A stretch of DNA of 64,000 nt, taken from positions 80,414,001 to 80,478,000 of the forward strand of contig OX597827.1 of assembly GCA_951406725.2 (NCBI GenBank), read 5' to 3'. This DNA is from Octopus vulgaris (lineage: Eukaryota). This document shows, one piece after another, positions 6,894 through 63,853 of the stretch. The position numbers were made by a program, and so were the translations under genes. Under the pieces are notes generated by a model. The model had not been told where the DNA came from. It saw only the letters and a program-made list of their open reading frames with translations, and did no database searches. Each line of letters starts with the position of its first letter. Positions within the stretch are counted from its first letter, which is position 1.

Positions 6894-7066
6894 CTTTTTA
6901 ATAATTATATCATTGGTTATTCAGTGAGAAAGAGAAAGATGTATTGTTGTAGAAAGATCCATTGTAAGTGCTGCTGTAATGGTGTGACAATGGCTGTTAT
7001 GGTGATGGAGTAGTGTAGCACGTCAGGCAGAGAGTCTGCTGCTAGGAGAGGGTTGCATGTGTCACT
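6894..7066 (-). other. Predicted non-coding first exon (leader) of P1
   Basis: One of seven near-identical 173-nt blocks. Starts at an Inr-like TTCAGTG and ends at donor AAAG|GTAAGT. The 5' end is inferred. Confidence 0.8.
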
Positions 7067-7270
7067 GAAGTTGTATGTTTTGTGAGAGTACATCTGTCTG
7101 ATAATAACATTCTGCTGAGCTGTTGTCAATAACTATTTACATATATGAAGATATATACTTATAATATAGTTGCAATATTCTATAGTTAAACATAATTGTT
7201 TTGTTTAATAATACTAGTAGTGTAAATGCTTAGCTTTGTTAGTGATTACTTTCTATGTTTTAGTGAGAAT

Positions 7271-7303
7271 CTGATTGGTTGATGACTTAAACAACAGACC
7301 AAT
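7271..7303. promoter_or_regulatory. Inverted CCAAT pair upstream of the P1 leader
   Basis: CTGATTGG, then a 20-bp gap, then CCAAT. Present upstream of all six leaders whose upstream region is visible. Confidence 0.75.
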
Positions 7304-7558
7304 GATGATGTCCTTTTAATATTGATTTGCATTAAGTAGGGTACAAGGGAGGGTTGTGACATTCTATATTTGATCACAAGCCTTAGTATAACTTGATTTA
7401 GTTTTGAGTACATTTCTCCTTAAATTTTATAAAAAACATTAGCATTAATATTTTCCACTAAAATTTTTCTATCTTTATATTTCAATAAGACAAATTATTT
7501 TGAAGCTTCTATTTTGTGCCTAACTCACACAGTTTGAGTGTAACTGGAAGATACATAG

Positions 7559-7561
<3 letters not shown>

Positions 7562-7596
<35 letters not shown>
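7562..7596. repeat. (TA)n microsatellite
   Basis: Read directly. Confidence 0.95.
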
Positions 7597-7599
<3 letters not shown>

Positions 7600-7865
7600 G
7601 TCTGAAATGTTCAACATTGAATATCGCTACATAATAATTTATTATTTGTGTGTGTGTGTGTATGTATGTATATATGTATTGCATGTGATGTATACAATTC
7701 TTATCCTTAGACACTTTGTTTCTCTAAAATCTACACTGCTATATAATATACTTAACAAGGAAAGTGTGGAAGTGTCTTGTGAAGTTGTTTGTCTCTTCTA
7801 TGTTCTACATTGTATCATAGTATATTCACATAGAGGAAGTCAGTTATGGTCCTGCAATAACAGAA

Positions 7866-7942
7866 TTACACTTGTTTCACTGGTGTTTCTTCACTAGAAT
7901 CTTTTGATGCAGATGTCCCATTGTTTTTATAAATATTTTGGT
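7866..7942 (-). CDS. PCDH: Protocadherin P2 terminal coding exon (exon 4)
   Basis: Acceptor ttctaaattccag. The phase-1 join with exon 3 gives DQNIYKNNGTSASKDSSEETPVKQV-TAA. The same 77-nt block occurs in all six complete units. Confidence 0.85.
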
Positions 7943-10754: not shown

Positions 10755-11029
10755 GAGTGTTACAGTTCAAATGTTGTAGAAATGCATTTACTACAAATCA
10801 ATACTCATACTTAGGTCTGTCATGAAGTCTGGGACTCATAAGATTGGAGCTTAATTCAATTTTTACATTAAAAATATTCATTACAATGCAAACACACATA
10901 TTTAAATTTAAGAATAGCAGAAAACAGGCCATCAATATTTAATTGAAAGTTTAACGTCTCTCTTCTTGATATAAATATCTGTTACATCGAAGAGATATTA
11001 AAGGAAATATAGCAATTACATTTACTAAC

Positions 11030-11183
11030 CTGACACTCCTGGTATTTCTTCGTAATGTTTCAAGTCTCCTTGTCTACCACTTCTCTTGGATGACATTGTA
11101 TCTGATGTATAGTTACAAACCATAGTAGCATTATCTTCCACAGCATCATCACTTGATGTCACCACAACAGGTTGACAGTATTT
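11030..11183 (-). CDS. PCDH: Protocadherin P2 exon 3 (cytoplasmic, 154 nt)
   Basis: Acceptor tttgtcaacag|AAATAC and donor TCAG|GTTAGT. Encodes KYCQPVVV...LKHYEEIPGVS, in frame with the exon 2 donor. Confidence 0.88.
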
Positions 11184-11354
11184 CTGTTGACAAACAAACG
11201 ATAAAGAAATGTGAGAAGACACCAAACAATGGAAGTTACAATCAACATGGAGAGAGAACAATTTAATATTGGAATGTATTATGGAAGTTAAAACATATTC
11301 AAAGAGATTTCATTGTTCACTTTTACAGAGAGAAAATGTAATGTTTCCACTTAC

Positions 11355-13730
11355 TGGGGTAGGTTTTGGTAAAGTTCTCGACTGAACCGAAGATTCATAT
11401 TTGTTCTGTAGCTGACCTTCTGCATAACATTCACTCTTGGATCTCTCAGAATAGATATTCCGCTTCACCATCTCTTCTGCATTCCTCGACATAGCAACAG
11501 AAGTGTTAGTCTGGTACAACAATTGTTTCATCTCTGCTCTACCTTGGTAGGCTGTATTCTTTGTGGCAGCAGCTGTGTTATCTCTGTGTTTAATACATTT
11601 CATAATACACAGTGTTATAGAAACAACAATAGCCACTGATATTATTACTGCTGATGATACAATGATAATAACCCATGTCATATGGACCCGACCTGAAGAT
11701 TGTAAAGGTCCACTCTTCGACATTGGTGATGTCTCGTTACTAACAGCCAACACCAAAGTGACACTAGTTGTTGACGACTGAACTGGACTACCACTGTCCT
11801 TCACAACAAACACCAGCTCATAACTTCCAGCATCATTTAGATAAACTTGTCTGGAGAAGGATAAAGCACCACTGTGTGAGTTCATACTAAACAACTGTTT
11901 AGCATTTCCTTGTTTGATTGCATATCTGAGGAAAGCATTGTTTCCACTGTCCCCATCAGAGGCTCTCAAAACTGTGATGTCACTCTTACTCTGCGGATGG
12001 TACTGCACATTTAGCGTGTAAGGGTCACTACTAGGATATGTAAAATACGGAGCATTGTCATTTTGATCTAGAATCTCAACAACAACATTCGCTGTGTCAT
12101 TCAGAGATGGGCTTCCATTGTCTTTGACAAAAACCTCAAACTTATACACATCTTGTTTCTCTCTGTCCAATGACATGGTCGCTGAAATGAAGCCATAACT
12201 GGTGATGAGAAATGGGAGATTGGATTTTTCTTTACGCAGCAGAGAATATGTGAGTTGTCCAGCAGATCCAAGATCAGGGTCAGTGGCATTGACAAAACCA
12301 ATAGGGAAGTCTTTATCTTTGTTTTCGTAGGTGAGGAATTGGAATGTATCTTTGGTAAACTGTGGTTGTACATCGTTGATGTCAGTCACTTGGATAGAGA
12401 GGCTTTTAACACTTTTGAGAGGAGGTAATCCTTTATCTTGACAGGAGACAGGAATGTTATAGTGTCCTTGTGTTTCTCTGTCCACTGGTTTGTTTAGAAT
12501 GATTTTATATTCTTTAGATCCCATTGACTGTAGTTTGAATGTATCATGTTTGATATCACAGCTGACCTCTCCATTTTGTCCCACATCATTGTCAGTGACC
12601 ATCACATAAGCAAGGAAACTACCGACTTTGATGTTTTCAGAGATGGTTCCTGTGTTATAATTGAGTGCATTAACATAATCTATATCCATAGAGGGAGGAT
12701 TATTGTGTTGGTTGATAACATTTACCAGAACAGTTGCTATGGAATTGAGTGGAGGGCTGCCTCCATCCCTGGCCTCTATAAACAATTCATAGGTTTTCTT
12801 TTTTTCCAACTTGGAGTATTTACTCAAGAAAATGCTTCCACTGGTTTCATTTAAGTGAAAATAGCTTTTTGCTAGATCTGATGTTTTGGGGCTGAAATGG
12901 AAAGTAATTTTACCATTTTCACCTGAATCAGCATCCGTTACAGATAAAACAATGATGGGTTTAGACTTGTGATGTGTGCTTTGTATGGATATATTGTATA
13001 GAGGTTTAGAAAACTCTGGTGGGTTGTCATTCACATCTGTTATCGAGATATTTATATTCAAAATACCTTGTTTTGATGGCGAACCTCCATCTTTAGCTAT
13101 GACTTGTAGTAAATATGTATCTTTGACTTCTCTGTCTAATGATTCTTTTAAAACTATTTTCAGAGAAGAAATACCATCAGCTCTTTTAGAAACTGACAGA
13201 GAGAATGGTTCTCCATTCTTTGATTTCAATTTATATTGTATTAATGAGTTTTGAAATCCTACATCTTTGTCTATGGCATTTGGTAGTGATACTTTAGAAC
13301 CTTTACTATCATTTTCATCAAACTGTATATTAACTTGCTTTAAAGGAAACTCCGGTTCGTAGTCATTAATATCTTCTATTACTATTTTGACTTTTAATAT
13401 TTTTGTGAAACTATCCACTTTCTTTATAATAACTTTAACAGTTCTGGAACATTCTTTGTTGAATGTGCAGAGATCTTCTGCATCCAGTGTCTGAGCAGTG
13501 TACAGTTTACCTGTTTTGGTGATATTAAATAACTGTGCCACCTTTCGTTTGAATTGACTGAATGTTATCAAATGTTGGTCAGATGGTTTAACATTGTCTA
13601 AAAGTTTAGAATCGGCAGCAATGTCTGCTACATATGTTCCTGGACTTCTCTCTTCTTCCACATGGTAGGTAAGGTCTATGGTCAAGACACAGTGGACCAG
13701 CGACAATACAAAGGTCAATGGCAGGAACAT
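11355..13730 (-). CDS. PCDH: Protocadherin P2 large exon (SP, EC1-6, TM, proximal tail)
   Basis: Six cadherin repeats (DxNDN, DRE, DxD, AxDxG motifs), EC1 C-x5-C motif, hydrophobic TM. Donor CCA|GTAAGT at 11354; the unspliced ORF continues to 11310. Acceptor at 13786-13787. Confidence 0.97.
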
Positions 13731-14779
13731 GTTGCTGTTGAGTGTCGGAACTGGTTGAATCTGTCAGGAATGATGAAGATTGAACCTGAAATAGAAATAC
13801 AATTTCCTCAATTTCAATTTTTATATATTACACATTGATTCATGCAACAAAGAGATCAGTACATAATTTTTGTGTGTAAATTTAGCAGAGAATGAATGGA
13901 AATGTTCATTACTTTTCCCTGTCATTATTCTAAGCTGTGAGAGATCCTGTAAGAGATGGAACTTTGTGTGACATCATACCATGCCACTTCATATCCATGT
14001 GTTACTTGCCATAATTTGTCGTGGAGAGATTAAGGGTATTGATGCAGAACAGGCATAATCGATGATAAATCGAACATATCCTTTGTATGCTATTCTTATT
14101 GTTTCTTTGTAGTAGTCACATATGGTGGCTGTGAGTGTTCTTTCATTCTCATAAATGTAATTCCTCATATTTTAGTCTTTTGAGTATAGTCTGTGATGTT
14201 ATTTGGTATCACTGTTAGAAGGGAGATGGTAGTTTGGGAAAAAAGTACAATTTACCTATTTTTGTTCTAACTGGACCTATTATGTACTACTGGGTTGGCA
14301 CTGCACTTTGAAAGACTTCAAAGCAACGAGTCATAAGCTGAAAGGCAAAGTAGAAAATGCTTCTTCATGGGTATGCTAGACACATGTGAGAGAAAGACTG
14401 AGGCTGTGAGTGATGAAAATCTTCAGTAAGTGGTAAAACCAAATGGTTGCTATATGGTTAGAGTGGTTATGGCAGTTCCTAGTTTGAAGTGATGGCTGCA
14501 TGGATGACAATGGGATAAAATGTACAAAAGTGTAGACAAAAAAGAACCTGCACATAACTGGTTGTATAAGTGGTACTTAGCACCACTCGAGAGAGCAATT
14601 CTGTCAGAACATGCTGACATCATTGCAATCTTCAGTTGATAGTCAATGAAAGGAGTTCTCTGCATTGCAAGCTGTATGTAAAAACAAGTGGCTGATGTAG
14701 GGTGGCAATAGCCATGAAGCTCTGTCAGAGAAATACTTGTGTATATATTTTGTTTGGTAGGAAAAGATGGTGTACAACA

Positions 14780-19864: not shown

Positions 19865-20037
19865 CTTTTCAATAATTATATCATTGGTTATTCAGTGAGG
19901 AAGAGAAAGATGTATTGTTGTAGAAAGATCCATTGTAAGTGCTGCTGTAATGGTGTGACAATGGCTGTTATGGTGATGGAGTAGTGTAGCACGTCAGGCA
20001 GAGAGTCTGCTGCTAGGAGAGGGTTGCATGTGTCACT
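19865..20037 (-). other. Predicted non-coding first exon of P2
   Basis: Leader copy with two substitutions versus consensus. Donor AAAG|GTAAGT; Inr-like TTCAGTG. Confidence 0.8.
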
Positions 20038-20251: not shown

Positions 20252-20285
20252 CTGATTGGTTGAATGACTTCAATAAAGGACCAAT
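20252..20285. promoter_or_regulatory. Inverted CCAAT pair, P2 promoter
   Basis: CTGATTGG, 21-bp gap, CCAAT. Confidence 0.75.
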
Positions 20286-20792: not shown

Positions 20793-20869
20793 TCATACAT
20801 GTTTCACAGGTGTTTCTTCACTGGAATCTTTTGAAGTAGAATTATCGTTATTTTTGTAAATATTTTGAT
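20793..20869 (-). CDS. PCDH: Protocadherin P3 terminal coding exon
   Basis: aattccag| then DQNIYKNNDNSTSKDSSEETPVKHV-TGA. Confidence 0.85.
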
Positions 20870-22004: not shown

Positions 22005-22158
22005 CTGATACTCCTGGTATTTCTTCGTAATGTTTCAAGTCTCCTTGTCTACCACTTCTCTTGGATGACATTGTATCTGATGTATAGTTACAAACCATAG
22101 TAGCATTATCTTCCACAGCATCATCACTTGATGTCACCACAACAGGTTGACAGTATTT
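22005..22158 (-). CDS. PCDH: Protocadherin P3 exon 3
   Basis: Same 154-nt exon and splice sites as P2. Confidence 0.88.
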
Positions 22159-22329: not shown

Positions 22330-24699
22330 TGGGGTAGGTTTTGGTAAAGTTCTCGACTGAACTGAAGATTCATATTTGTTCTGTAGCTGACCTTCTGCAT
22401 AACATTCACTCTTGGATCTCTCAGAATAGATATTCCGCTTCACCATCTCTTCTGCATTCCTCGACATAGCAACAGAAGTGTTAGTCTGGTACAACAATTG
22501 TTTCATCTCTGCTCTACCTTGGTAGGCTGTATTCTTTGTGGCAGCAGCTGTGTTATCTCTGTGTTTAATACATTTCATAATACACAGTGTTATAGAAACA
22601 ACAATAGCCACTGATATTATTACTGCTGATGATACAATGATAATAACCCATGTCATATGGACCCGACCTGAAGATTGTAAAGGTCCACTCTTCGACATTG
22701 GTGATGTCTCGTTACTAACAGCCAATACCAAAGTGACACTAGTTGTTGACGACTGAACTGGACTACCACTGTCCTTCACAACAAACACCAGCTCATAACT
22801 TCCAGCATCATTTAGATAAACTTGTCTGGAGAAGGATAAAGCACCACTGTGTGAGTTCATACTAAACAACTGTTTATCATTTCCTTGTATGATTGCATAT
22901 CTGAGGAAAGCATTGTTTCCACTGTCCCCATCAGAGGCTCTCAAAACTGTGATGTCACTCTTACTCTGCGGATGGTACTGCACATTTAGCGTGTAAGGGT
23001 CACTACTAGGATATGTAAAATACGGAGCATTGTCATTTTGATCTAGAATCTCAACAACAACATTCGCTGTGTCATTCAGAGATGGGCTTCCATTATCTTT
23101 GACAAAAACCTCAAACTTATACACATCTTGTTTCTCTCTGTCCAATGACATGGTCGCTGAAATGAAGCCATAACTGGTGATGAGAAATGGGAGATTGGAT
23201 TTTTCTTTACGCAGCAGAGAATATGTGAGTTGTCCAGCAGATCCAAGATCAGGGTCAGTGGCATTGACAAAACCAATAGGGAAGTCTTTATCTTTGTTTT
23301 CGTAGGTGAGGAATTGGAATGTATCTTTGGTAAACTGTGGTTGTACATCGTTGATGTCAGTCACTTGGATAGAGAGGCTTTTAACACTTTTGAGAGGAGG
23401 TAATCCTTTATCTTGACAGGAGACAGGAATGTTATAGTGTCCTTGTGTTTCTCTGTCCACTGGTTTGTTTAGAATGATTTTATATTCCTTGGATCCCATT
23501 GACTGTAGTTTGAATGTATCATGTTTGATATCACAGCTGACCTCTCCATTTTGTCCCACATCATTGTCAGTGACCATCACATAAGCAATGAAACTACCAA
23601 CTTTGATCTTTTCAGAGATGGTACCAGTGTTGTCACTGATTGCAGAAACATAATCAATATCAATAGATGGAGGATTGTTGTGTTGGTTGATAACATTTAC
23701 GAGGACTGTTGCAATAGAACTGATTGGAGGATTGCCTCCATCTCTGGCTTCTATAAATAATTCAAAAGATGTTTTTTCATTCAAACTAGAAATTCTAGAT
23801 AAAAATACTTTGCCAGCTTTTTCATCCAATTCGAAATATTTCTTTGCCAAATCAGAAGTTTTGGGGCTGAAATGGAAAGTAATTTTACTGTTGGATCCAA
23901 TATCTTTGTCTGTCACTGACAAAGTAAGAATGGGTTTTGTTTTGTCGTGTGTGGTTCTAATGGAAATATTATAAAGGGGTTTTGAAAATACAGGTGGATT
24001 ATCATTCTGATCATCAACAACAATCACAACATTTAACACACTCTGTTTAGATGGAGAACCTCCATCTTTAGCAATAACTTCTAAATTGTACTTATCTTTT
24101 AACTCTCGGTCTAATTTATCCTTTAAAACAATATTTAATGATGAAATACCATCAGCTCTTTTGGAAACTGACAAAGAAAATGAATTAGACTTTTTAAGTT
24201 TATATTCAATGAAAGAATTTTGATAACTAACATCTTTGTCTATGGCATTTGGAATTGACTTTTTCATACCTTCACGATCTCCTTCACCAAACTTTAAAAT
24301 TATTTGTTTTTCAGGAAACTCCGGTTCATGGTCATTGATGTCTTCTATTACTATTTTGACTTTTAATATTTTTGTGAAACTATCCACTTTCTTTATAATA
24401 ACTTTCATAGTTCTAGAACATTCTTTGTTGAATGTGCAGAGATCTTCTGCATCCAGTGTCTGAGCAGTGTACAGTTTACCTGTTTTGGTGATGTTAAATA
24501 ACTGTGCCACCTTTCGTTTGAATTGACTGAATGTTATCAGATGTTGGTCAGATGGTTTAACATTGTCCAAAAGTTTAGAATCGGCAGCAATGTCTGCTAC
24601 ATATGTTCCTGGACTTCTCTCTTCTTCCACATGGTAGGTAAGGTCAATGGTCAAGACACAGTGGACCATTGACAATACAATGGACAATGACAATAACAT
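22330..24699 (-). CDS. PCDH: Protocadherin P3 large exon (divergent EC2-EC3)
   Basis: 804-aa ORF with six EC repeats and TM. Donor at 22329; AAG acceptor at 24746-24747. Confidence 0.97.
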
Positions 24700-24967
24700 T
24701 GTGTTGCTACTAGGTAAAGTTGTCCAAGTATGGTGAAGATTGAACCTTAAATAGAAATGTGATTGAATTAATTAATTATTTATTTAATCAGTCATAAATT
24801 ATAAGAATATTGATATTACAATATAATCATCATGATGTCTTCAAATAAATGATATTAGTAGTGTTTCATAGAAGAAGGTCAAGTAAATAAAATCTGAATA
24901 TACTGACATGTTATGACATTAGATATATTGTTGGTTTTATTATTAAGTTCTTGACAGGACACTTTAA

Positions 24968-28137: not shown

Positions 28138-28310
28138 CTTTTTAATAATTATATCATTGGTTATTCAGTGAGAAAGAGAAAGATGTATTGTTGTAGAAAG
28201 ATCCATTGTAAGTGCTGCTGTAATGGTGTGACAATGGCTGTTATGGTGATGGAGTAGTGTAGCACGTCAGGCAGAGAGTCTGCTGCTAGGAGAGGGTTGC
28301 ATGTGTCACT
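28138..28310 (-). other. Predicted non-coding first exon of P3
   Basis: Consensus leader copy with donor and Inr-like start. Confidence 0.8.
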
Positions 28311-28513: not shown

Positions 28514-28546
28514 CTGATTGGTTGAATACCCAAACAGGAGACCAAT
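28514..28546. promoter_or_regulatory. Inverted CCAAT pair, P3 promoter
   Basis: CTGATTGG, 20-bp gap, CCAAT. Confidence 0.75.
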
Positions 28547-29122: not shown

Positions 29123-29199
29123 TTACACATGTTTCACTGGTGTCTCTTCACTGGAATCTTTTGATGTAGATGTACCATTGTTTTTATATATATTTTGAT
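29123..29199 (-). CDS. PCDH: Protocadherin P4 terminal coding exon
   Basis: aattccag| then DQNIYKNNGTSTSKDSSEETPVKHV-TAA. Confidence 0.85.
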
Positions 29200-33246: not shown

Positions 33247-33400
33247 CTGATACTCCTGGTATTTCTTCATAATGTTTCAAGTCTCCTTGTCTACCACTTC
33301 TCTTGGATGACATTGTATCTGATGTATAGTTACAAACCATAGTAGCATTATCTTCCACAGCATCATCACTTGATGTCACCACAACAGGTTGACAGTATTT
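33247..33400 (-). CDS. PCDH: Protocadherin P4 exon 3
   Basis: 154-nt exon; donor G|GTTAGC. Confidence 0.88.
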
Positions 33401-36698: not shown

Positions 36699-36750
36699 CA
36701 TGTGTCACTGAAGTTGTATGTTTTGTGGAAGTACGTCCATCTAATGATAC
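36699..36750 (-). promoter_or_regulatory. Ectopic 52-bp copy of the P4 core-promoter/Inr segment inside P4 intron 1
   Basis: catgtgtcactgaagttgtatgttttgtggaagtacgtccatctaatgatac is identical to 40164-40215. Confidence 0.6.
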
Positions 36751-40001: not shown

Positions 40002-40174
40002 CTTTTTAATAATTATATCATTGGTTATTCAGTGAGAAAGAGAAAGATGTATTGTTGTAGAAAGATCCATTGTAAGTGCTGCTGTAATGGTGTGACAATG
40101 GCTGTTATGGTGATGGAGTAGTGTAGCACGTCAGGCAGAGAGTCTGCTGCTAGGAGAGGGTTGCATGTGTCACT
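40002..40174 (-). other. Predicted non-coding first exon of P4
   Basis: Consensus leader copy. Confidence 0.8.
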
Positions 40175-40373: not shown

Positions 40374-40407
40374 CTGATTGGCTGCATGACCTAAACAGAA
40401 GACCAAT
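40374..40407. promoter_or_regulatory. Inverted CCAAT pair, P4 promoter
   Basis: CTGATTGG, 21-bp gap, CCAAT. Confidence 0.75.
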
Positions 40408-41685: not shown

Positions 41686-41839
41686 CCGATACTCCTGGTA
41701 TTTCTTCATAATGTTTCAAGTCTCCATGTCTACCACTTCTCTTGGATGACATTGTATCTGATGTATAGTTACAAACCATAGTAGCATTATCTTCCACAGC
41801 ATCATCACTTGATGTCACCACAACAGGTTGACAGTATTT
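41686..41839 (-). CDS. PCDH: Protocadherin P5 exon 3
   Basis: 154-nt exon; donor G|GTTAGT. Confidence 0.88.
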
Positions 41840-42010
41840 CTGTTGACAAACAAACAATAAAGAAATGTGAGAAGACACCAAACAATGGAAGTTACAATCA
41901 ACATGGAAAGAGAACAATTTAATATTGGAATGTATTATTGAAGTTAAAACATATTCAAAGAGATTTCATTGTTCACTTTTACAGAGAGAAAATGTAATGT
42001 TTCCACTTAC

Positions 42011-44386
42011 TGGGGTAGGTTTTGGTAAAGTTCTTGACTGAACTGAAGATTCATATTTGTTCTGTAGCTGACCTTCTGCATAACATTCACTCTTGGATCT
42101 CTCAGAATAGATATTCCGCTTCACCATCTCTTCTGCATTCCTTGACATAGCAACAGAAGTGTTAGTCTGGTACAACAATTGTTTCATCTCTGCTCTACCT
42201 TGGTAGGCTGTATTCTTTGTGGCAGCAGCTGTGTTATCTCTGTGTTTAATACATTTCATAATACACAGCGTTATAGAAACAACAATAGCCACTGATATTA
42301 TTACTGCTGATGATACAATGATAATAACCCATGTCATATGGACCCGACCTGAAGATTGTAAAGGTCCACTCTTCGACATTGGTGATGTCTCATTACTAAC
42401 AGCCAATACCAAAGTGACACTAGTTGTTGACGACTGAACTGGACTACCACTGTCCTTCACAACAAACACCAGCTCATAACTTCCAGCATCATTTAGATAA
42501 ACTTGTCTGGAGAAGGATAAAGCACCACTGTGTGAGTTCATACTAAACAACTGTTTATCATTTCCTTGTATGATTGCATATCTGAGGAAAGCATTGTTTC
42601 CACTGTCCCCATCAGAGGCTCTCAAAACTGTGATGTCACTCTTACTCTGCGGATGGTACTGCACATTTAGCGTGTAAGGGTCACTACTAGGATATGTAAA
42701 ATACGGAGCATTGTCATTTTGATCTAGAATCTCAACAACAACATTTGCCGTGTCATTCAGAGATGGGCTTCCATTATCTTTGACAAAAACCTCAAACTTA
42801 TACACATCTTGTTTCTCTCTGTCCAATGACATGGTTGCTGAAATGAAGCCATAACTGGTGATGAGAAATGGGAGATTGGATTTTTCTTTACGCAGCAGAG
42901 AATATGTGAGTTGTCCAGCAGATCCAAGATCAGGGTCAGTGGCATTGACAAAACCAATAGGGAAGTCTTTATCTTTGTTTTCGTAGGTGAGGAATTGGAA
43001 TGTGTCTTTGGTAAACTGTGGTTGTACATCGTTGATGTCAGTCACTTGGATAGAGAGGCTTTTAACACTTTTGAGAGGAGGTAATCCTTTATCTTGACAG
43101 GAGACAGGAATGTTATAGTGTCCTTGTGTTTCTCTGTCCACTGGTTTGTTTAGAATGATTTTATATTCTTTGGATCCCATTGACTGTAGTTTGAATGTAT
43201 CATGTTTGATATCACAGCTGACCTCTCCATTTTGTCCCACATCATTGTCAGTGACCATCACATAAGCAATGAAACTACCAACTCTGGTATTTTCAGAGAT
43301 GGTACCTGTGTTATAATTGAGTGCATTAACATAATCAATATCAATAGATGGAGGATTGTTGTGTTGGTTGATAACATTTACGAGGACTGTTGCTATGGAA
43401 CTGAGAGGAGGGTTGCCTCCATCTCTAGCCTCTATGAATAATTCGTAAGTTTTCTTTTTCCCTAAGTTTGAATATTCCTTTAACAAAATATTTCCACTGG
43501 TTTCATTTAAGTGAAAATAGCTTTCTGCTAGATCTGATGTTTTTGGACTGAAGTGGAAAGTAATTTTACTATTTTTACCAGAATCAGCATCTGTTACAGA
43601 CAAAACAATGATGGGTTTAGATTTGTGATGTGTACTTTGTATGGATATATTATATAGAGGTTTAGAAAACTCTGGTGGGTTATCATTAACATCTATTACA
43701 GAAATATTTATATTCAAAATCCCTTGTTTTGCTGGTGACCCTCCATCTTTAGCTATGACCTGTAATAAATATGTATCTTTGATTTCTCTGTCCAATGTTT
43801 CTTTTAAAACTATTTTAAGAGAAGAAATACCGTCAGCTCTTTTAGACACTGACAGAGAGAATGGTTCTCCATTCTTTGATTTTAATTTATATTGTATTAA
43901 TGAGTTCTGAAATCCAACATCTTTGTCTATGGCATTCGGTATTGATCTTTTTGCATTTTTGCGATCATCTTCACTAAACTGTATGTTCACATTATTCTTA
44001 AGAAACTCTGGTTCGTGGTCATTGATATCTTCTATTACAATTTTGACTTTTAATATTTTTGTGAAGCTATCCATTTTCTTTATAATAACTTTCACAGTTC
44101 TGGAACATTCTTTGTTGAATGTGCAGAGATCTTCTGCATCCAGTGTCTGAGCAGTGTACAGTTTACCTGTTTTGGTGATGTTAAATAACTGTGCCACCTT
44201 TCGTTTGAATTGACTGAATGTTATCAAATGTTGGTCAGATGGTTTAACATTGTCTAAAAGTTTAGAATCGGCAGCAATGTCTGCTACATATGTTCCTGGA
44301 CTTCTCTCTTCTTCCACATGGTAGGTAAGGTCTATGGTCAGGACACACTGGACCAGTGAGAATACAAAGGTCAATGGCAGTAACAT
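42011..44386 (-). CDS. PCDH: Protocadherin P5 large exon
   Basis: 806-aa ORF with six EC repeats and TM. Donor at 42010; acceptor at 44443-44444. Confidence 0.97.
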
Positions 44387-45329
44387 GTTGCTGCTGGATG
44401 TTGGTATTTCTAAAAGATTTTCAGATATGCTCAGGAATGAACCTAAAACAGAAGGATATATGATCTTTTTAAAAACTTTGTCATTATGAGGAATAGTTTT
44501 GATAACATTTTCTGGTCAATTTATTTTGGAAGTAAATGCATGGGAAGAAATTAAATATACTTACAGCACAGTTTTAAGATCTGGAAAGAAAATTCTAATA
44601 AACCCTTGGTTATGAGCTACTTTTGTTCCTCTAGAGGTGGCATACAACAGAACAGTGAGAGGAGAGGTTTGATGAAATAACTATGAATTACAGGAAAAGA
44701 TACACTTAAAAGATGGAGAGCCTTGTTGAGGATTGGAGAGAAAAAAAGGGAGCAGCTGTAGTGTATTTGTGAATGGATTATTGTCAGTCGTTGGGTGAGC
44801 AATTTTAGATGAGGGTCTTCAGTGTTTGTGTAGTAAGAGATAAACATTTTTAAGGAGTTTGTAAATGGAGAGTGCATATCTTGCATGAAGTGTGCATATT
44901 GCTTAAGCCTGAACCCTCTTTGTCGAAGGTTAAGCAATGTGCACTGCTAAATTGGAAGCTATACGTGCAGGGTAGTTTGAAGAAAGGATTACAGCAGCAT
45001 TCTTCAATCTTTTTATGCTTAACAACACCATTTCTAAATTTTGGGAGGATAAAATTTACATGTAGCCCACTAATATTTAAACTGAAGAAAAAAAACAAAA
45101 ACTGAAACATACTTAGCCTGTATTAAACAATAAAATTGATTGAAATTAACTGGTATTTAAGGATTTCCTAGAGCCTAATGCTAAGAAACTAAATTTTAAG
45201 AGGGCTTGGTTTGAATTTTGTAAGAAACAAACAAATGCCTGTTCTTTCAACAATTTTCAGACAACTTTTGGTGACAATATAATCTACAGCCCTGAAGCCT
45301 AAATCAACTAGATATGGGGGTGGGCAAAA

Positions 45330-48877: not shown

Positions 48878-49050
48878 CTTTTTAATAATTATATCATTGG
48901 TTATTCAGTGAGAAAGAGAAAGATGTATTGTTGTAGAAAGATCCATTGTAAGTGCTGCTGTAATGGTGTGACAATGGCTGTTATGGTGATGGAGTAGTGT
49001 AGCACGTCAGGCAGAGAGTCTGCTGCTAGGAGAGGGTTGCATGTGTCACT
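48878..49050 (-). other. Predicted non-coding first exon of P5
   Basis: Consensus leader copy. Confidence 0.8.
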
Positions 49051-49253
49051 GAAGTTGTACGTTCAATATTATTAGTAAATCCATCTAATAATATTTTGCA
49101 TGAATTTATCCTTCAAAATGATGTTTTCATAAACATTTACATATTCAAATAGCTACAATAACCTATAGTTAATCATAATTGTTTGATTTAAAAACATCAG
49201 TAATGTGAAGGCTTATCTTTGTCAGTGATTTCTTTTTATGTTTTGAAGAGAAT

Positions 49254-49287
49254 CTGATTGGTTGAATGGACTAGACAGAACACCAAT
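49254..49287. promoter_or_regulatory. Inverted CCAAT pair, P5 promoter
   Basis: CTGATTGG, 21-bp gap, CCAAT. Confidence 0.75.
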
Positions 49288-49863
49288 GGCAATATTTGTT
49301 TTAATGTTGATTTTTAAAAAAAAATTAGTAAGCAGGAGGCTTTAATATAGGGGAACATAGGATGTATAACATTCGTAACTTTCTTGAGGACATAAATAAT
49401 ATTGATAACTAGATATAATTTTTAGTTCATTTTTTGTAAACTATTTAACTATTTTGAAGTCATTGTCTACAATACCAAATTTGGAAATGAGAGGACAATA
49501 TTTCTTCAGTTTGTATCTTCATTATAGTTAATAGATGTTAATAAATTTCTATGTTACATTTTACAGAGAAAAATAAAATTATGTGGAGATGATATTTCAG
49601 TTTTTAAATCTATATTAAAATCTATATTAAATCTATATTAGCTTAATATTATTACACTGAAATATCTCATTAAGAATCAGAATGAACTCTATTTATTGAG
49701 AGAAATTCATGTTTATCTGAGAAATGGTGAGGATTTATGTAACCTTCAGTCTTTGGGAATGAACAGAAGAGATAAGAGAGATGTCTATATTGATATGTGT
49801 ACTGAATGATCTCTATCCTATATTTATACAGGAATCAGAAATTATGTCTCATCAATAATATAT

Positions 49864-49940
49864 TTATACATGTTTCACTGGTGTTTCTTCACTGGAATCT
49901 TTTGATGTGGAATTATCATTGTTTTTATAAATATTTTGAT
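49864..49940 (-). CDS. PCDH: Protocadherin P6 terminal coding exon
   Basis: aattccag| then DQNIYKNNDNSTSKDSSEETPVKHV-TAA. Confidence 0.85.
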
Positions 49941-50374: not shown

Positions 50375-50528
50375 CTGAAACTCCAGGTATTTCTTCGTAA
50401 TGTTTCAAGTCTCCTTGTCTACCACTTCTCTTGGATGACATTGTATCTGATGTATAGTTACAAACCATAGTAGCATTATCTTCCACAGCATCATCACTTG
50501 ATGTCACCACAACAGGTTGACAGTATTT
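50375..50528 (-). CDS. PCDH: Protocadherin P6 exon 3
   Basis: 154-nt exon; donor G|GTTAAT. Confidence 0.88.
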
Positions 50529-50699: not shown

Positions 50700-53075
50700 T
50701 GGGGTAGGTTTTGGTAAAGTTCTCGACTGAACCGAAGATTCATATTTGTTCTGTAGCTGACCTTCTGCATAACATTCACTCTTGGATCTCTCAGAATAGA
50801 TATTCCGCTTCACCATCTCTTCTGCATTCCTCGACATAGCAACAGAAGTGTTAGTCTGGTACAACAATTGTTTCATCTCTGCTCTACCTTGGTAGGCTGT
50901 ATTCTTTGTGGCAGCAGCTGTGTTATCTCTGTGTTTAATACATTTCATAATACACAGCGTTATAGAAACAACAATAGCCACTGATATTATTACTGCTGAT
51001 GATACAATGATAATAACCCATGTCATATGGACCCGACCTGAAGATTGTAAAGGTCCACTCTTCGACATTGGTGACGTCTCGTTACTAACAGCTAATACCA
51101 AAGTGAGACTAGTTGTTGACGACTGAACTGGACTACCACTGTCCTTCACAACAAACACCAGCCCATAACTTCCAGCATCATTTAGATAAACTTGTCTGGA
51201 GAAGGATAAAGCACCACTGTGTGAGTTCATACTAAACAACTGTTTATCATTTCCTTGTTTGATTGCATATCTGAGGAAAGCATTGTTTCCACTGTCCCCA
51301 TCAGAGGCTCTCAAAACTGTGATGTCACTCTTACTCTGTGGATGGTACTGCACATTTAGCGTGTAAGGGTCACTACTAGGATATGTAAAATACGGAGCAT
51401 TGTCATTTTGATCTAGAATCTCAACAACAACATTCGCTGTGTCATTCAGAGATGGGCTTCCATTATCTTTGACAAAAACCTCAAACTTATACACATCTTG
51501 TTTCTCTCTGTCCAATGACATGGTCGCTGAAATGAAGCCATAACTGGTGATGAGAAATGGGAGATTGGATTTTTCTTTACGCAGCAGAGAATATGTGAGT
51601 TGTCCAGCAGATCCAAGATCAGGGTCAGTGGCATTGACAAAACCAATAGGGAAGTCTTTATCTTTGTTTTCGTAGGTGAGGAATTGGAATGTATCTTTGG
51701 TAAACTGTGGTTGTACATCGTTGATGTCAGTCACTTGGATAGAGAGGCTTTTAACACTTTTAAGAGGAGGTAATCCTTTATCTTGACAGGAGACAGGAAT
51801 GTTATAGTGTCCTTGTGTTTCTCTGTCCACTGGTTTGTTTAGAATGATTTTATATTCTTTAGATCCCATTGACTGTAGTTTGAATGTATCATGTTTGATA
51901 TCACAGCTGACCTCTCCATTTTGTCCCACATCATTGTCAGTGACCATCACATAAGCAAGGAAACTACCAACTTTGATGTTTTCAGAGATGGTACCTGTGT
52001 TATAATTGATTGCAGAAACATAATCAATATCAATAGATGGAGGATTGTTGTGTTGGTTGATGACATTTACTAGAACAGTTGCAATGGAACTAAAAGGTGG
52101 ACTGCCCCCATCCCTGGCTTCTATAAATAGTTCATATGTTTTCTTTTTTCCCAAATTTGAATATTTCTTTAACAGAATATTTCCACTGGTTTCATTTAAC
52201 TGAAAATAGCTTTTTGCTAGATCTGATGTCTTTGGACTGAAATGGAAAGAAATTTTACCATTTTCACCAGCATCAGCATCAGTCACAGATAAAACAATGA
52301 TGGGTTTAGACTTGTGATGTGCACTTTGTATGGATACATTATACAGAGGTTTTGAAAACTCTGGTGGGTTATCATTAACATCTATTACAGAAATATTTAT
52401 ATTTAAAACACCTTGTTTTGCTGGTGAACCTCCATCTTTAGCTATGACCTGTAATAAATACGTATCTTTGATTTCTCTGTCCAATGATTCTTTTAAAACT
52501 ATATTAAGCGAAGAAATACCGTCAGCTCTTTTAGACACTGACAGAGAGAATGGTTCACCATTCTTTGATTTTAATTTATATTGTATTAAGGAATTTTGAA
52601 ATCCTATATCCTTGTCCATTGCGTTTGGTAGTGATACTTTGGCTTCATCACGATCATCTTCATCAAACTGTATATTAACTTGCTTTAAAGGAAACTCCGG
52701 TTCATGGTCATTAATATCTTCTATTACTATTTTGACTTTTAATATTTTTGTGAATGATTCCATTTTCTTAATAATAACTTTAAGAGTTCTGGAACATTCT
52801 TTGTTGAATGTGCAGAGATCTTCTGCATCCAATGTCTGAGCAGTGTACAGTTTACCTGTTTTGGTGATGTTAAATAACTGTGCCACCTTTCGTTTGAATT
52901 GACTGAATGTTATCAAATGTTGGTCAGATGGTTTAACATTGTCTAAAAGTTTAGAATCGGCAGCAATGTCTGCTACATATGTTCCTGGACTTCTCTCTTC
53001 TTCCACATGGTAGGTAAGGTCTATGGTCAAGACACAGTGGACCATTGACAATACAATAGAAAATGACAGGAGCAT
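50700..53075 (-). CDS. PCDH: Protocadherin P6 large exon
   Basis: Likely start is MLLSFSIV at 53075, which aligns with the paralogs. Acceptor ttttttcag at 53127-53128; donor at 50699. Confidence 0.96.
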
Positions 53076-54259
53076 GTTGAATTGTTGGTCCAATGTGAAG
53101 ATTTCCAGATATGCAGATGATTGAGTCTGAAAAAAGAAATACAACTTTAATATTTTCATTATTTGAGCTGATATGATTCAGAATTGCACAATAATAATAG
53201 ATTTGAATGGAGAAAAAGAAAAACAATGGCTAAAATTCTGAATTTAGTAACCGAAAGCAGAAATGCGATCATATATTCAAAAGAAATACATGCTACACTA
53301 CTAAAGAAACTGAGTAATTACATATGAGGATATGTATTTAATCTGGTTATTGTAAAATATACTAAGTTACTGGCTGAAAAAAATAGTTCTGTATCAAATT
53401 CATCAGTTTATATAGCGTCAAGATTGTACAACATGTAATCAGATTGTATATGATCCACGAGGATGACAGCTCACATAGGATCTAACTGCATATTATTTGA
53501 TTCTGATGACACAGAAGCATGTCTTTCAGCTATGACTTCTATTATCTTTTTTTGCCTTAACATAATTTACGAATAACAAATTAAAAAATTTTTTTAAATG
53601 TCAACTTAAATATTGATCTGAACAGATTACCTTTCATGACAGGATGGGTCAAAATGATGATGGCAATTAGTAGAAATAATCGTTGATAATTTACATCTTC
53701 TTGTTCATAAATCAATTTATTTCCATACATGCAACTTTAATGTCTAGTTCTTTTTCACTGTCTTCCATTCAGAGTCACAATGCACAACCAACATGGAATT
53801 TACTTCTTTCTCACCAACTCAGGTCATCAACATTTATTACCCAACACTCATAATCATACAGCATTACACATATTTTGTACAATCTCTTTGTTGTCAATCT
53901 GTAGTGAGACATGTCAGCACTATTTTGTTGTGGTGACATAACACAGTCGTGCTACACTCAAAACATTCAATCACTGCTGGCCGTGGAAGGATACACGTGA
54001 CTAAGTGGTGAAGTGTGAGTTTCGAAAGGCAAAACCCAGTTCCTGAGAAGACATAGAGATCTAAACACATCAGTTGTTTGTTCTGACAACAAAACATTGC
54101 TGAATTAATGCTGATCAGAAAACAGCATTCATACAACTATAGGATCTATACCCTTACCTCACAACCACTAGAGAAACTCATTGGAAATTTAGATTTGCAG
54201 CCAAATACCAGTTCTAACTATCTTGATGTTTATTAAGAAATTAACTCATGTCTCACTAC

Positions 54260-57190: not shown

Positions 57191-57363
57191 CTTTTTAATA
57201 ATTATATCATTGGTTATTCAGTGAGAAAGAGAAAGATGTATTGTTGTAGAAAGATCCATTGTAAGTGCTGCTGTAATGGTGTGACAATGGCTGTTATGGT
57301 GATGGAGTAGTGTAGCACGTCAGGCAGAGAGTCTGCTGCTAGGAGAGGGTTGCATGTGTCACT
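57191..57363 (-). other. Predicted non-coding first exon of P6
   Basis: Consensus leader copy. Confidence 0.8.
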
Positions 57364-57595: not shown

Positions 57596-57629
57596 CTGAT
57601 TGGCTGCATGAGCTAAACAGAAGACCAAT
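57596..57629. promoter_or_regulatory. Inverted CCAAT pair, P6 promoter
   Basis: CTGATTGG, 21-bp gap, CCAAT. Confidence 0.75.
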
Positions 57630-58266: not shown

Positions 58267-58343
58267 TTATACATGTTTCACTGGTGTTTCTTCACTGGAA
58301 TCTTTTGATGTAGAATTATCATTGTTTTTATAAATATTTTGAT
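58267..58343 (-). CDS. PCDH: Protocadherin P7 terminal coding exon
   Basis: Acceptor ttctgtttctcag| (different intron context, same position), then DQNIYKNNDNSTSKDSSEETPVKHV-TAA. Confidence 0.85.
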
Positions 58344-58727: not shown

Positions 58728-58881
58728 CTGACACTCCTGGTATTTCTTCATAATGTTTCAAGTCTCCGTGTCTACCACTTCTCTTGGATGACATTGTATC
58801 TGATGTATAGTTACAAACCATAGTAGCATTATCTTCCACAGCATCATCACTTGATGTCACCACAACAGGTTGACAGTATTT
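58728..58881 (-). CDS. PCDH: Protocadherin P7 exon 3
   Basis: 154-nt exon; donor G|GTTAGT. Confidence 0.88.
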
Positions 58882-59052
58882 CTGTTGACAAACAAACGAG
58901 AAAGAAATGTGAGAAGACACCAAACAATGGAAGTTACAATCAACATGGAAAGAGAACAATTTAATATTGGAATGTATTATTGAAGTTAAAACATATTCAA
59001 ATAGATTTCATTGTTCACTTTTACAGAGAGAAAATGAAATATTTTCACTTAC

Positions 59053-61428
59053 TGGGGTAGGTTTTGGTAAAGTTCTCGACTGAACCGAAGATTCATATTT
59101 GTTCTGTAGCTGACCTTCTGCATAACATTCACTCTTGGATCTCTCAGAATAGATATTCCGCTTCACCATCTCTTCTGCATTCCTCGACATAGCAACAGAA
59201 GTGTTAGTCTGGTACAACAATTGTTTCATCTCTGCTCTACCTTGGTAGGCTGTATTCTTTGTGGCAGCAGCTGTGTTATCTCTGTGTTTAATACATTTCA
59301 TAATACACAGCGTTATAGAAACAACAATAGCCACTGATATTATTACTGCTGATGATACAATGATAATAACCCATGTCATATGGACCCGACCTGAAGATTG
59401 TAAAGGTCCACTCTTCGACATTGGTGATGTCTCGTTACTAACAGCCAATACCAAAGTGACACTAGTTGTTGACGACTGAACTGGACTACCACTGTCCTTC
59501 ACAACAAACACCAGCTCATAACTTCCAGCATCATTTAGATAAACTTGTCTGGAGAAGGATAAAGCACCACTGTGTGAGTTCATACTAAACAACTGTTTAT
59601 CATTTCCTTGTATGATTGCATATCTGAGGAAAGCATTGTTTCCACTGTCCCCATCAGAGGCTCTCAAAACTGTGATGTCACTCTTACTCTGCGGATGGTA
59701 CTGCACATTTAGCGTGTAAGGGTCACTACTAGGATATGTAAAATACGGAGCATTGTCATTTTGATCTAGAATCTCAACAATAACATTCGCTGTGTCATTC
59801 AGAGATGGGCTTCCATTATCTTTGACAAAAACCTCAAACTTATACACATCTTGTTTCTCTCTGTCCAATGACATGGTCGCTGAAATGAAGCCATAACTGG
59901 TGATGAGAAATGGGAGATTGGATTTTTCTTTACGCAGCAGAGAATATGTGAGTTGTCCAGCAGATCCAAGATCAGGGTCAGTGGCATTGACAAAACCAAT
60001 AGGGAAGTCTTTGTCTTTGTTTTCGTAGGTGAGGAATTGGAATGTATCTTTGGTAAACTGTGGTTGTACATCGTTGATGTCAGTCACTTGGATAGAGAGG
60101 CTTTTAACACTTTTAAGAGGAGGTAATCCTTTATCTTGACAGGAAACAGGAATGTTATAGTGTCCTTGTGTTTCTCTGTCCACTGGTTTGTTTAGAATGA
60201 TTTTATATTCTTTAGATCCCATTGACTGTAGTTTGAATGTATCATGTTTGATATCACAGCTGACCTCTCCATTTTGTCCCACATCATTGTCAGTGACCAT
60301 CACATAAGCAATGAAACTACCGACTTTGATGTTTTCAGAAATGGTAGCTGTGTTGTGATTCTGTGTAGAAACATAATCTATATCAATAGATGGAGGATTG
60401 TTGTGTTGGTTGATGACATTTATCAGAACAGTTGCTATGGAACTGAGAGGAGGGCTGCCTTCATCCCTGGCCTCTACAAATAATTCATAGGTTTTCTTTT
60501 TCCCTAAGTTTGAATATTCCCTTAAGAAAATGCTTCCACTGGTTTCATTTAACTGAAAATAGCTTTTTGCCAAATCTGATGTCTTTGGACTGAAATGGAA
60601 AGTAATTTTACCATTTTCACCAGAATCAGCATCTGTTACAGATAAAACAATGATGGGTTTAGATTTGTGATGTGTACTTTGTATAGACATATTGTATAGA
60701 GGTTTAGAAAATACAGGTGGGTTGTCATTAACATCTATTATGGAAATATTTATGTTTAAAATACCTTGTTTTGCTGGCGAACCTCCATCTTTAGCTATGA
60801 CCTGTAATAAATATGTATCTTTGATTTCTCTGTCTAATGATTCTTTCAAAACTATTTTAAGAGAAGAAATTCCATCAGCTCTTTTAGCCACTGACAGAGA
60901 GAATGGTTCTCCATTCTTTGATTTTAATTTATATTGTATTAATGAGTTTTGAAATCCTACATCCTTGTCTATGGCATTTGGTAACGATTTTTTTGAACCT
61001 TTTGAAATATCCTCTGCAAGCTGCATATTGATTTTAATCTTAGGAAATTTTGGTTCATGGTCATTGATGTCTTCTATTACTATTTTGATTTTTAATATCT
61101 TTGAAACACTGGTTCCTTTATTGACAACAACCTTCATAGTTCTGGAACATTCTTTGTTGAATGTGCAGAGATCTTCTGCATCCAGTGTCTGAGCAGTGTA
61201 CAGTTTACCTGTTTTGGTGATGTTAAATAACTGTGCCACCTTTCGTTTGAATTGACTGAATGTTATCAAATGTTGGTCAGATGGTTTAACATTGTCTAAA
61301 AGTTTAGAATCGGCAGCAATGTCTGCTACATAGGTTCCTGGACTTCTCTCTTCTTCCACATGGTAGGTAAGGTCTATGGTCAGCACACAGTGGACCACTA
61401 ATAATACTACAGAAAATGGCAGTAACAT
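59053..61428 (-). CDS. PCDH: Protocadherin P7 large exon
   Basis: 806-aa ORF with six EC repeats and TM. Donor at 59052; acceptor at 61480-61481. Confidence 0.97.
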
Positions 61429-63680
61429 GTTGTTGTGTTGGAACCAGATAAAGGTGTCCAGGACTGTTGAAGAATAAACCTAAAACAGAAATATACTTTC
61501 TTAAATTGTTATTATCAGACAAGTAAATATATTTATAGATTTGGGAACAAAAACTGCACCAGGCCAGCAGTCTAAAATATAATAATATCTGAATTACTAA
61601 GTTGGTATTAGGTAACTTTATTGAAGAATTAGTAATACTCATGCCATTCCCATAATATGAAAAAAATCTCTTACTCAGAAAAACTACAAGAATGTTGTTC
61701 AATATAATGTCTAGCTAATATTGAAATTTGATATGTGAAACACAATTACTTTTCTTGTACACTCCCTAAATTTATATACTGAAACACCAAACAATAGTTA
61801 AAAAAATCCCTCAGGTTTGGTCAAGAAAAAATATAGCTAATGAAATCTCTCTGACTCAGTCAAAAGTTTTCCCCTAAAATGAAATATACAATGAACTTGA
61901 CAAACTTATATTTCTTTCTATATTCATTAATCTGATATATGTATTCTCTAGAGACACGTCTACTGGAATCATTCTGCTTTCCATCACATATCAGGGGTCA
62001 TCTTCTTTGAAAATTTCTGTGTTAGCAAAGTAGTGACTCTTGACAGAGGCAAGAGACTTAGGCATGGGAACTCATTGGAAAAAGAGGCCATGCAAGGACT
62101 GCACTCATTTATGACAACTTGCATTGGAGGATGTGAACCTCAGGGTAAGGTTTTCTCTTTGTAAGAAAGAAAGAATCTTATGTTTTCTCCTATGCATATA
62201 TATAAAAAGAACTGCTGTATGTATAACACTCTCAATGTTCTGGTACATTAAAATAACTCCCTATAATTACGAGTGTGAAGTTTTGTTCTGAAACTAATTG
62301 TGTTATTGGTGATTATATTTAAAAGATAAAGAAGTAATTAACGTATAATTAAAACCAGGTCTAAATAGAAGTAATAATCATGAAAATAAAATCACAATAA
62401 AAGCCCATATCTAAAGAAATGAATTCAGAAATAAACTATAAAATTTAATATAGTTTCATGTAATTAAAAGTATGCTTGCAATAGCTTTCTTAAACATAAG
62501 TATTTATCCTTGTTTCTCAGAAATAGGATTGCCAACTAATAAAGATTAGAAAATGACATGTATTGACTAATATTGAAGATTAAAGATCTTATGACAAATA
62601 AAAGACTAATGTGTTATAGATTAAGTAAATTTTGATGACTACAGATTATAAAAAGTTGCAGTTTATGCAAATTATATAAAAACATGTTTATACATAGAAC
62701 ATTATGATCTAAATAGAAACGTTACAATGGGTCATAGAATACAATAATAAAAAAAAAGCACCAAGTCCTTCCGTAATAACTAAGCAAAATTAGAAATTTC
62801 CAACTCGTCAGATTGCCTTATAATGATGAAAATCCTCCTAAAGACAGATTGCTTTCAATATGATCTATTAAATTGGTATTGAAAATACACTTGATGTTTA
62901 ACTTCTGTAAAATATTGGCTTTAAATGTTCACATAATCTAACAGAATTTCACTATTGGAAATATTTGACAAAAAATATATATAACTGAAATTTTAGACAG
63001 AAATTACACAAATAATTAAATCACACACATACAAAAAAATTAAGTTTAAAAACATTAAAAATTACTATGATTTACACATAAATATATTTTAAGGAAACAT
63101 ATACAAAGATATTGCTAGCATTCTGCCTTTTCTACACAAAACTAGTCCTTGTCTTTTCTACAAGCCACCATTTCTATTCACTAATTTCCTTTGCTATTGA
63201 TCATTATTCCACATTAAAAATCTGTAACACAATGTTACTGCATCAATGCTATGAATCCACAAATTATAAAACAGATTTAAAAAGACTATAGTATATTTCT
63301 TCATATACTATATCAAACAACTTTTTGTAACTTTCCATAAATACAGACACAAAATTTCATCTTCTGAACAAAAACACTGCTACACTACGTTATACAGACA
63401 GCTGCCTACTGTTATTAGTCTGTTCATGCATCAAATATTATACAGCCATGGACGTTAGTGTTTCAACTGAATAAAGTTGAAATATGAAATACTTTTATCA
63501 ACGTCATCCAATTAATTATGGCATAAAAAAATATGAACAACACTACCATAAAATATGAGTGTATTATATTAATTCTTTTATTCTCTTGTCAACATCAAAT
63601 ATGTTAGAACAATATTGTTTCAAGTTCAGTGAGATTTATTGCATCAAATGAGGTTATAAAAAAATTAACTAGAAACTTAC

Positions 63681-63853
63681 CTTTTTGATAATTATATCAT
63701 TGGTTATTCAGTGAGAAAGAGAAAGATGTATTGTTGTAGAAAGATCCATTGTAAGTGCTGCTGTAATGGTGTGACAATGGCTGTTATGGTGATGGAGTAG
63801 TGTAGCACGTCAGGCAGAGAGTCTGCTGCTAGGAGAGGGTTGCATGTGTCACT
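63681..63853 (-). other. Predicted non-coding first exon of P7
   Basis: Leader copy with one substitution; donor AAAG|GTAAGT. Its CCAAT pair would fall just beyond the window end. Confidence 0.8.

Follow-up and report, generated by a model that had tools for sequence, protein, structure and literature searches.

A near-uniform non-coding first exon in an octopus protocadherin array, probably kept alike by gene conversion over an older motif core

Why should a non-coding exon be nearly the same in gene after gene when the DNA on both of its sides is not? The question is raised by a 64,000-nt stretch of the Octopus vulgaris genome (contig OX597827.1, C14:80414001-80478000; hereafter the window), which is part of a tandem array of protocadherin (Pcdh) genes on the minus strand, here called array D. 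Each gene of this array has one copy of a 173-nt non-coding first exon on the same minus strand, the leader. We consider it likely that the near-identity of the leader comes from ongoing gene conversion between neighbouring genes, and that it lies atop an old core of motifs predicted to be a shared control element.

The closest named proteins are Pcdhs of O. vulgaris and O. sinensis (best 95%) and of Argonauta hians (79-86%). A unit of array D consists, in order, of the leader exon, intron 1 (2-10 kb across the array, about 2.2-6.3 kb in the window genes), exon 2 (about 50 nt of untranslated region (UTR), signal peptide, EC1-6, transmembrane segment and proximal tail), intron 2, exon 3, intron 3 and exon 4 with the stop codon, and the next leader follows exon 4 after 470-3089 nt (median 812; 26/26 units with an exon 4 match). 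All 26 of these units have their own exon 3, exon 4 and stop (the tail was translated in 16 of them), so there is no shared constant exon of the vertebrate type. Cephalopod Pcdhs have been described as lacking shared final exons (PMC9068888; this and the other papers are cited from the portions of their text available). An earlier note on this DNA, made from the sequence alone, had called the leader the reverse of the vertebrate constant exons, which is only an analogy: the leader exists as 27 separate copies and not as one shared exon.

The seven leaders that the earlier note had placed in the window have exactly the coordinates it gave (Table 1), and its description of an AAAG/GTAAGT donor border (7/7 copies), a first intron of the above length and an acceptor 46-57 nt before the ATG was likewise accurate. 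Its figure of 0-2 nt of difference is right in comparison with the first copy (0, 2, 0, 0, 0, 0 and 1 nt), whereas the largest pairwise difference is 3 nt, and the fall-off of identity that it saw upstream is gradual: near-invariance begins about 9 nt before the boundary that it had set, and diversity is 0.11-0.15 over -60..-1. A genome search with the leader gave 28 matches (genome-wide leader counts are lower bounds), all of them in array D on the minus strand (C14:80.396-80.677 Mb), comprising 27 full copies and one diverged piece; it thus found one leader per gene and no dispersed repeat. Chance is excluded because the 27 full copies alternate one-to-one with Pcdh coding exons on the same strand; a GT donor is found at the end of all 27. 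Two units, u09 and u19 (C14:80595328-80595493 and 80489380-80489547), share a 9-nt deletion across the Inr-like leader boundary.

Splicing was assessed in contigs of four probable RNA runs from three studies, placed on one array D unit, the status of the runs as RNA being a guess. The joint of a non-coding 5' exon to exon 2, as had been proposed, was found in contigs of two of the four runs (X4 and X5; a GT-AG joint skipping 4435 nt in the gene with ATG 44386), a looser joint from leader to exon 2 occurs in X1 and X5, and none is listed for X13. Intron 2 is skipped in all four runs, and the joint of exon 3 to exon 4 is present in X1 and X5. The leader contigs extend to 49058-49063, 8-13 nt beyond the boundary given for the exon, although contigs cannot map a start, and the summed contig depth is 55-1636 in the leader bin and 0-17 beyond 49136 (>85 nt upstream). 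Separately, a contig of run X1 at window positions 49034-49400 spans the promoter into the leader, with a depth of 17 versus 4-7 in intron contigs; it may be read-through from the 3' end of the upstream gene, or DNA. Read-through fusions are mentioned in a single-cell paper (PMC9712504).

How unusual is the uniformity of the leader within its own gene? Among 26 units (the most divergent unit, u27, was excluded from the coding profile, neutral-site and segment-diversity comparisons) the mean pairwise difference is 0.007 in the leader and 0.37 upstream, 0.13 at -60..-1 and 0.31 in intron 1. In the coding exons it is 0.012 in EC1a, 0.17 in EC1b-EC3 and 0.009 from EC4b to the cytoplasmic part. The exon 2 UTR has a value of 0.40, and intron 2 together with exon 3 one of 0.018. 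The statement that the leader is better conserved than the signal peptide and EC2-3 of the same genes is therefore true but selective, since EC1a, the EC4b-cytoplasmic segment and intron 2/exon 3 are about as homogeneous: the leader is one of three homogenised tracts per gene and is not uniquely invariant. There is an abrupt rise in diversity at the exon 1 and exon 3 donors, and the copies of exon 4 match one another at only about 83-95%. Selection on the protein cannot explain the uniformity, because four-fold degenerate (4-fold) sites are also uniform in the homogenised tracts (0.035-0.043, with 0.035 in EC4b-cytoplasmic, versus 0.354 in EC1b-EC3), as is intron 2 (0.019). Leaders are identical in 79 of 325 pairs, and 76 of these 79 pairs differ by >20% on both flanks; moreover, distances in the promoter, in intron 1 and in EC2-3 do not correlate with one another (Mantel rho -0.09 to 0.08). 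Shared variants occur at 4 of 173 leader positions versus 17 of 178 4-fold sites of the other tracts (Fisher p 0.006), which gives some sign that the array D leader may be under extra constraint beyond conversion.

The coding tracts could be followed across species, using the proteins of 21 intact array D units, 21 of Argonauta and 9 of O. sinensis. The excluded units, 6/27, have frameshifts or stops in exon 2 (u05-u07 and u11-u13; C14:80.55-80.63 Mb) and intact leaders, and are either pseudogenes or assembly errors. The EC4b-cytoplasmic protein differs by 0.2-1.1% within species and by 6-17% between this genome and Argonauta, with 41/417 columns near-fixed between the two, and the EC2-3 protein differs by 18-28% within and 26% between, with 0/250 columns near-fixed. 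In a quick tree EC2-3 splits into two lineages, each including both genera, Octopus and Argonauta (SH-aLRT 100). Judged from these protein sequences, the 3' coding tract (EC4b-cytoplasmic) is evolving in concert, in all likelihood by regional gene conversion, and the turnover of the leader itself between species presumably follows the same rule.

If conversion makes leaders alike within an array, is there anything in them that is older than the array? Protein searches located further Pcdh arrays on the same contig, namely A (80.0-80.27 Mb), B (79.47-79.62) and C (79.19-79.40), and array E on the plus strand (C14 81.36-81.47 Mb). With a profile made from the D leader, homologous exons were detected ahead of genes of arrays A, B and C, and a broader profile built without E gave exactly one weak match (E-value about 0.07) upstream of 10 of the 12 array E genes, on the correct strand and each ending at a donor; in 1.46 Mb of reversed sequence there were 0 profile matches at E<1. 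The 106 leaders with a located donor in the five arrays form 20 lineages at <85% identity (leaders in which no donor was located are excluded from the lineage and motif set). Diversity over the last 130 nt of the leader is 0.012 in A, 0.013 in C, 0.008 in D, 0.000 in E and 0.326 in B, where the leader flanks have a diversity of 0.47-0.51; leaders are thus near-identical within four arrays (A, C, D and E) and not within B. The leader of array A is homogenised though EC1 stays divergent (0.213), and in arrays C and E the uniform tract continues past the donor into the intron. In array B the 3' coding tract is partly uniform (4-fold 0.065-0.091), and B might represent a state in which the leader escaped conversion. 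Between arrays, the last 130 nt of D leaders align with those of A, B and C at 60-69% (z 5.2-7.7), with upstream and intron controls at z -1.1 to 1.9 and 4-fold sites 49-53% alike. That the leaders align while their flanks are near chance suggests that the exon is old, that its core is constrained and that each converting array has fixed its own version.

By DNA and pattern searches the leader family was found only within C14:79.19-81.46 Mb and as one orphan elsewhere, and the donor-end pattern had 39 of 39 genome matches within the same interval (the arrays and their edges). The orphan, about 650 bp long, corresponds to the leader and the start of intron 1 of an array A unit and lies at C10:63.177 Mb (L170), beside a common repeat and with no Pcdh coding match within about 5 kb. 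A single pattern match on C21 was rejected as a short match without a leader, and the pattern TGACTCAC...TGTCAMAC had 84 matches in the genome against 94 in the control and is thus not enriched. No leader was found within 20 kb upstream of each of nine dispersed Pcdh genes, which longer introns or divergence could explain.

The core shared by the arrays is marked by short motifs. Of the 20 lineages, 12 retain TGA[CG]TCA (against a shuffle mean of 1.0 matches) and 19 carry ACAAWG/CWTTGT, with 29 occurrences in all (shuffle mean 6.3); CAGCAG and, near the donor, GGAT[TA] are each present in 14 lineages, both above dinucleotide shuffles. We take TGACTCA and ACAAWG/CWTTGT to resemble AP-1 and Sox/HMG sites, respectively. 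The earlier note had spoken of a shared cis module, which is reasonable given a motif core that has persisted across arrays; its further idea that the near-identity itself is selected is unsupported. We predict that the core serves as a control element common to the genes, just downstream of the transcription start. A role in the DNA is favoured over one in the RNA, at about evenly balanced chances, because upstream ATGs change position from array to array and a conserved fold is lacking.

Conversion over an older core could have produced these patterns in the following way. Purifying selection would have kept the ancestral leader alignable as its flanks decayed, and the resulting island of similarity would have turned into a conversion tract that maintains itself and carries a single version across each array. 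Crossovers or tract ends within the leader might then reshuffle the upstream promoters against the EC2-3 recognition modules. The retained AP-1-like and Sox-like motifs would be DNA binding sites that give the genes a common neural input; this is the weakest step, with a role at the RNA level about equally likely. Several observations weigh against this account. The array D leader itself is without TGACTCA, having TGACGTG in 27/27 copies; the motif counts are not independent, because the 20 lineages share descent and 14 of them come from the array B region; and the names AP-1 and Sox denote predicted sites only. Relative to intron 2, shared variants are not depleted in the leader (p 1.0; p 0.0005 when all variants are counted), and the array A leader is not below 4-fold diversity (0.012 vs 0.002-0.020). 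The similarity of D and E leaders is weak (55%, z 2.5; upstream control z 2.1), the cross-species evidence covers the coding tract only, and the runs are contig data guessed to be RNA, which cannot place the transcription start.

A more far-reaching reading compares the core with the conserved sequence element (CSE) of vertebrate Pcdhs, which is associated with a CGCT box and a CTCF site and, like the leader core, is a cis element near the start of each gene in nearly all members (PMC7811963). The leader core might be an independently evolved octopus counterpart of that promoter element, kept interchangeable within an array by conversion, which would at once shuffle promoters against EC2-3 recognition modules, with isoform combinations drawn by neurons largely at random in a system that has neither CTCF boxes nor constant exons; we regard this as possible but rather unlikely. 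Unlike the CSE, the octopus candidate lies inside a spliced non-coding exon and has no CGCT box or CTCF-type pattern. In array D, CGCT/AGCG is present in 1 of 27 upstream regions, and a CTCF-type pattern had 4 matches vs 2.67 expected, at chance level and none at promoters. Farther upstream of the array D leaders is a second conserved island, at about -260..-200, with an ATTGG/CCAAT pair (ATTGG in 25 and CCAAT in 27 of the 27 units) which was not seen in the upstream profiles of arrays A or B. The pair is presumably CCAAT-box-like.

The central idea of the earlier note was that the near-identity is itself selected, so that promoters are equivalent and a neuron picks its isoforms at random. That leader diversity is below that of 4-fold sites of other tracts in arrays D, C and E agrees with this, as does the separate homogenisation of the leader in four of the five arrays, in A despite its divergent EC1. 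The one observation that fits interchangeable promoters in particular is that upstream promoters are reassorted against EC2-3 modules. Equivalence of the promoters is nevertheless unsupported, because their upstream DNA differs by 0.37; an intron and synonymous sites are as uniform as the leader, and array B keeps the motifs and, as far as open frames show, is functional although its leaders differ by 0.33. The lack of a CTCF-type or CGCT signal at the array D promoters also speaks against it. In single-cell data about 19-21 Pcdhs are found per cell, some of them enriched in cell types, and these data do not test random choice (PMC9712504). We therefore hold selection for near-identity to be improbable.

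Still less likely, in our view, is that the conserved element acts in the mRNA, through upstream frames or a site for an RNA-binding protein that gives all isoforms a common translation or localisation. The leader exon is indeed present in spliced contigs, and three upstream ATGs are kept in 27/27 array D leaders; in the seven window genes all three frames close inside the leader before the main start, and none opens into the main protein. In the lineage alignment, 12 of the 20 lineages have an ATG 6 nt ahead of the donor. The number of ATGs, however, is near that of shuffles (71 vs a mean of 60 and a maximum of 76), the upstream frames shift position between arrays, with one aligned site alternating between ACAATG and ACAAAG, and the portion of the 5' UTR that lies in exon 2 diverges strongly (0.40). 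Tests for a structured RNA were negative: the leader had no Rfam match at gathering level, its fold was not stable (z 0.32) and it gave no consensus structure. In several genes of array C (e.g., L096) the ATG 6 nt before the donor would open, by eye, a short frame whose stop overlaps the main ATG.

Homogenisation templated by reverse-transcribed mRNA would place tract edges at exon borders, and the jumps of diversity at the donors of exons 1 and 3 recall this. It is largely refuted by intron 2, which is homogenised though spliced out in all four runs, and neither the heterogeneous exon 2 UTR part and exon 4 copies nor the passage of the uniform tract into the intron in arrays C and E agrees with it; we consider it very improbable. 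We give equally little credence to recent gene duplication or to copies merged by assembly polishing. An octopus Pcdh burst has been dated to 8-14 million years ago (PMC9795677) and 6/27 units are broken in this assembly, but the flanks differ by 31-37% on both sides, the mosaic pattern refutes recent duplication, the EC2-3 lineages are common to Argonauta, and contigs of independent runs, aligned with the leader over 156, 173 and 188 nt, show 0, 0 and 2 differences from it. An origin of the block as a transposon or another kind of dispersed repeat, for which only the orphan piece of array A beside a common repeat could be cited, is refuted for this genome within the limits of our searches, since the copies are confined to the arrays and linked to genes (28 matches in one 281-kb stretch, on one strand and one per gene; 39/39 donor-end matches in the array interval), and its probability is negligible.

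Conversion between neighbours over an older core has parallels in what is known of Pcdhs. Like array D, the coleoid Pcdh sub-arrays described previously are head-to-tail duplicates of whole genes on one chromosome, with no shared constant exons and with conversion suggested, and a 27-gene subcluster of O. bimaculoides may be set beside the 27 full units here, by count only; conversion tracts are not mapped in the portions of these papers available, and neither a non-coding first exon nor a shared motif is described there (PMC9068888, PMC9795677, PMC6339937). Gene conversion in coleoid Pcdhs was suggested in the first of them (PMC9068888). Distance-based dating treats the coleoid arrays as young, whereas array D has EC2-3 lineages in common with Argonauta; given these shared types, distance-based dates of these arrays may be underestimates, through conversion. 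In vertebrate clustered Pcdhs, as here, the 3' ectodomain and cytoplasmic regions are nearly 100% identical within subclusters and divergent between them, with a boundary in EC4 and EC2-3 spared (PMC1852091, fugu; PMC3966226, review). G+C at 4-fold sites is slightly raised in the octopus tracts (0.29-0.32 in converted tracts vs 0.24 elsewhere), and the rise in GC3 in fugu is larger (PMC1852091). Differently from vertebrates, which have variable/constant clusters with shared constant exons that array D lacks, a separate non-coding exon kilobases away is also a conversion island in the octopus.

Group-specific conserved 5' regions are found in other families too, such as the upstream groups of Plasmodium var genes and the non-coding first exons of olfactory receptors, whose sequences are unrelated to the octopus leader; restricted or random choice has been shown for those two families, unlike octopus Pcdhs. 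That coleoid Pcdhs form tandem arrays and that Pcdh coding regions undergo conversion was already known; what is new here is the set of homologous leaders across five arrays, uniform per array and with retained motifs. The open literature yielded no account of the leader, its homogenisation per array or its motif core, although subscription papers, supplements and UTR annotation in databases may hold a prior mention.

Table 1. Features of the array D genes in the window (window coordinates).
Feature	Position	Strand	Remarks
Leader exon 1, gene with ATG 512	6894..7066	-	intron 1 of 6325 nt
Leader exon 1, gene with ATG 13730	19865..20037	-	
Leader exon 1, gene with ATG 24699	28138..28310	-	three short closed upstream frames, starts at leader positions 9, 105, 154
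Leader exon 1, gene with ATG 35947	40002..40174	-	
Leader exon 1, gene with ATG 44386	48878..49050	-	splice to exon 2 acceptor 44442 in contigs (4435-nt GT-AG intron; X4, X5)
Leader exon 1, gene with ATG 53075	57191..57363	-	
Leader exon 1, gene with ATG 61428	63681..63853	-	
Motif core shared with leaders of other arrays, example copy	28213..28269	-	TGAC motif at leader positions 42-48, then CATTGT/TGTCACAC...CAGCAGCA block
ATTGG/CCAATCA pair	7272..7303	-	about 210-240 nt upstream of leader; same pair at 20253-20285, 28515-28546, 40375-40407, 49255-49287, 57597-57629
Exon 2, example gene	42011..44442	-	divergent 5' UTR part, signal peptide, EC1-6, transmembrane, proximal tail; EC1a and EC4b-to-end homogenised, EC2-3 divergent
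Exon 2, other copies	11355-13785, 22330-24745, 33572-36004, 50700-53126, 59053-61479, 1-568 (cut)	-	
Intron 2	41840..42010	-	171 nt, non-coding yet homogenised (diversity 0.019); internal control for conversion
Exon 3	41686..41839	-	154 nt, homogenised; others 11030-11183, 22005-22158, 33247-33400, 50375-50528, 58728-58881
Terminal exon 4, coding part with stop codon	40982..41058	-	others 7866-7942, 20793-20869, 29123-29199, 49864-49940, 58267-58343

Some further observations concern the genes around the leader. When intron 2 is left unspliced (window 11310-11355 and equivalents), the frame runs on for 14 codons to a conserved stop, a possible short-tailed isoform. No polyadenylation hexamer was found at a conserved position between the stop and the next leader in array D units. 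One intron 1 contains an inverted repeat with 102-nt arms that are 94% complementary (window 4860-5146), and another, about 0.7 kb upstream of exon 2, a truncated copy of its gene's own start region from -40 to +11 (window 36699-36749, minus strand). At the array edges (C14:80.005-80.007, 80.385-80.396 and 80.682 Mb) there are 'ghost' units, with leaders that have no intact coding exon, and coding remnants.

The near-invariance of the leader is in itself best read as the outcome of conversion, a known process. Identity within these arrays is a mosaic of conversion tracts, and therefore whole-gene distances likely understate the age of the arrays, and only EC2-3, the exon 2 UTR, exon 4 and the 3' UTR allow short reads to be assigned to individual genes. 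The uniform leaders of arrays A, C, D and E and the diverged ones of B form a natural series for comparison. For the control of the independently expanded Pcdhs of cephalopods, the leader offers a small and concrete candidate control element, placed before about a hundred arrayed genes.

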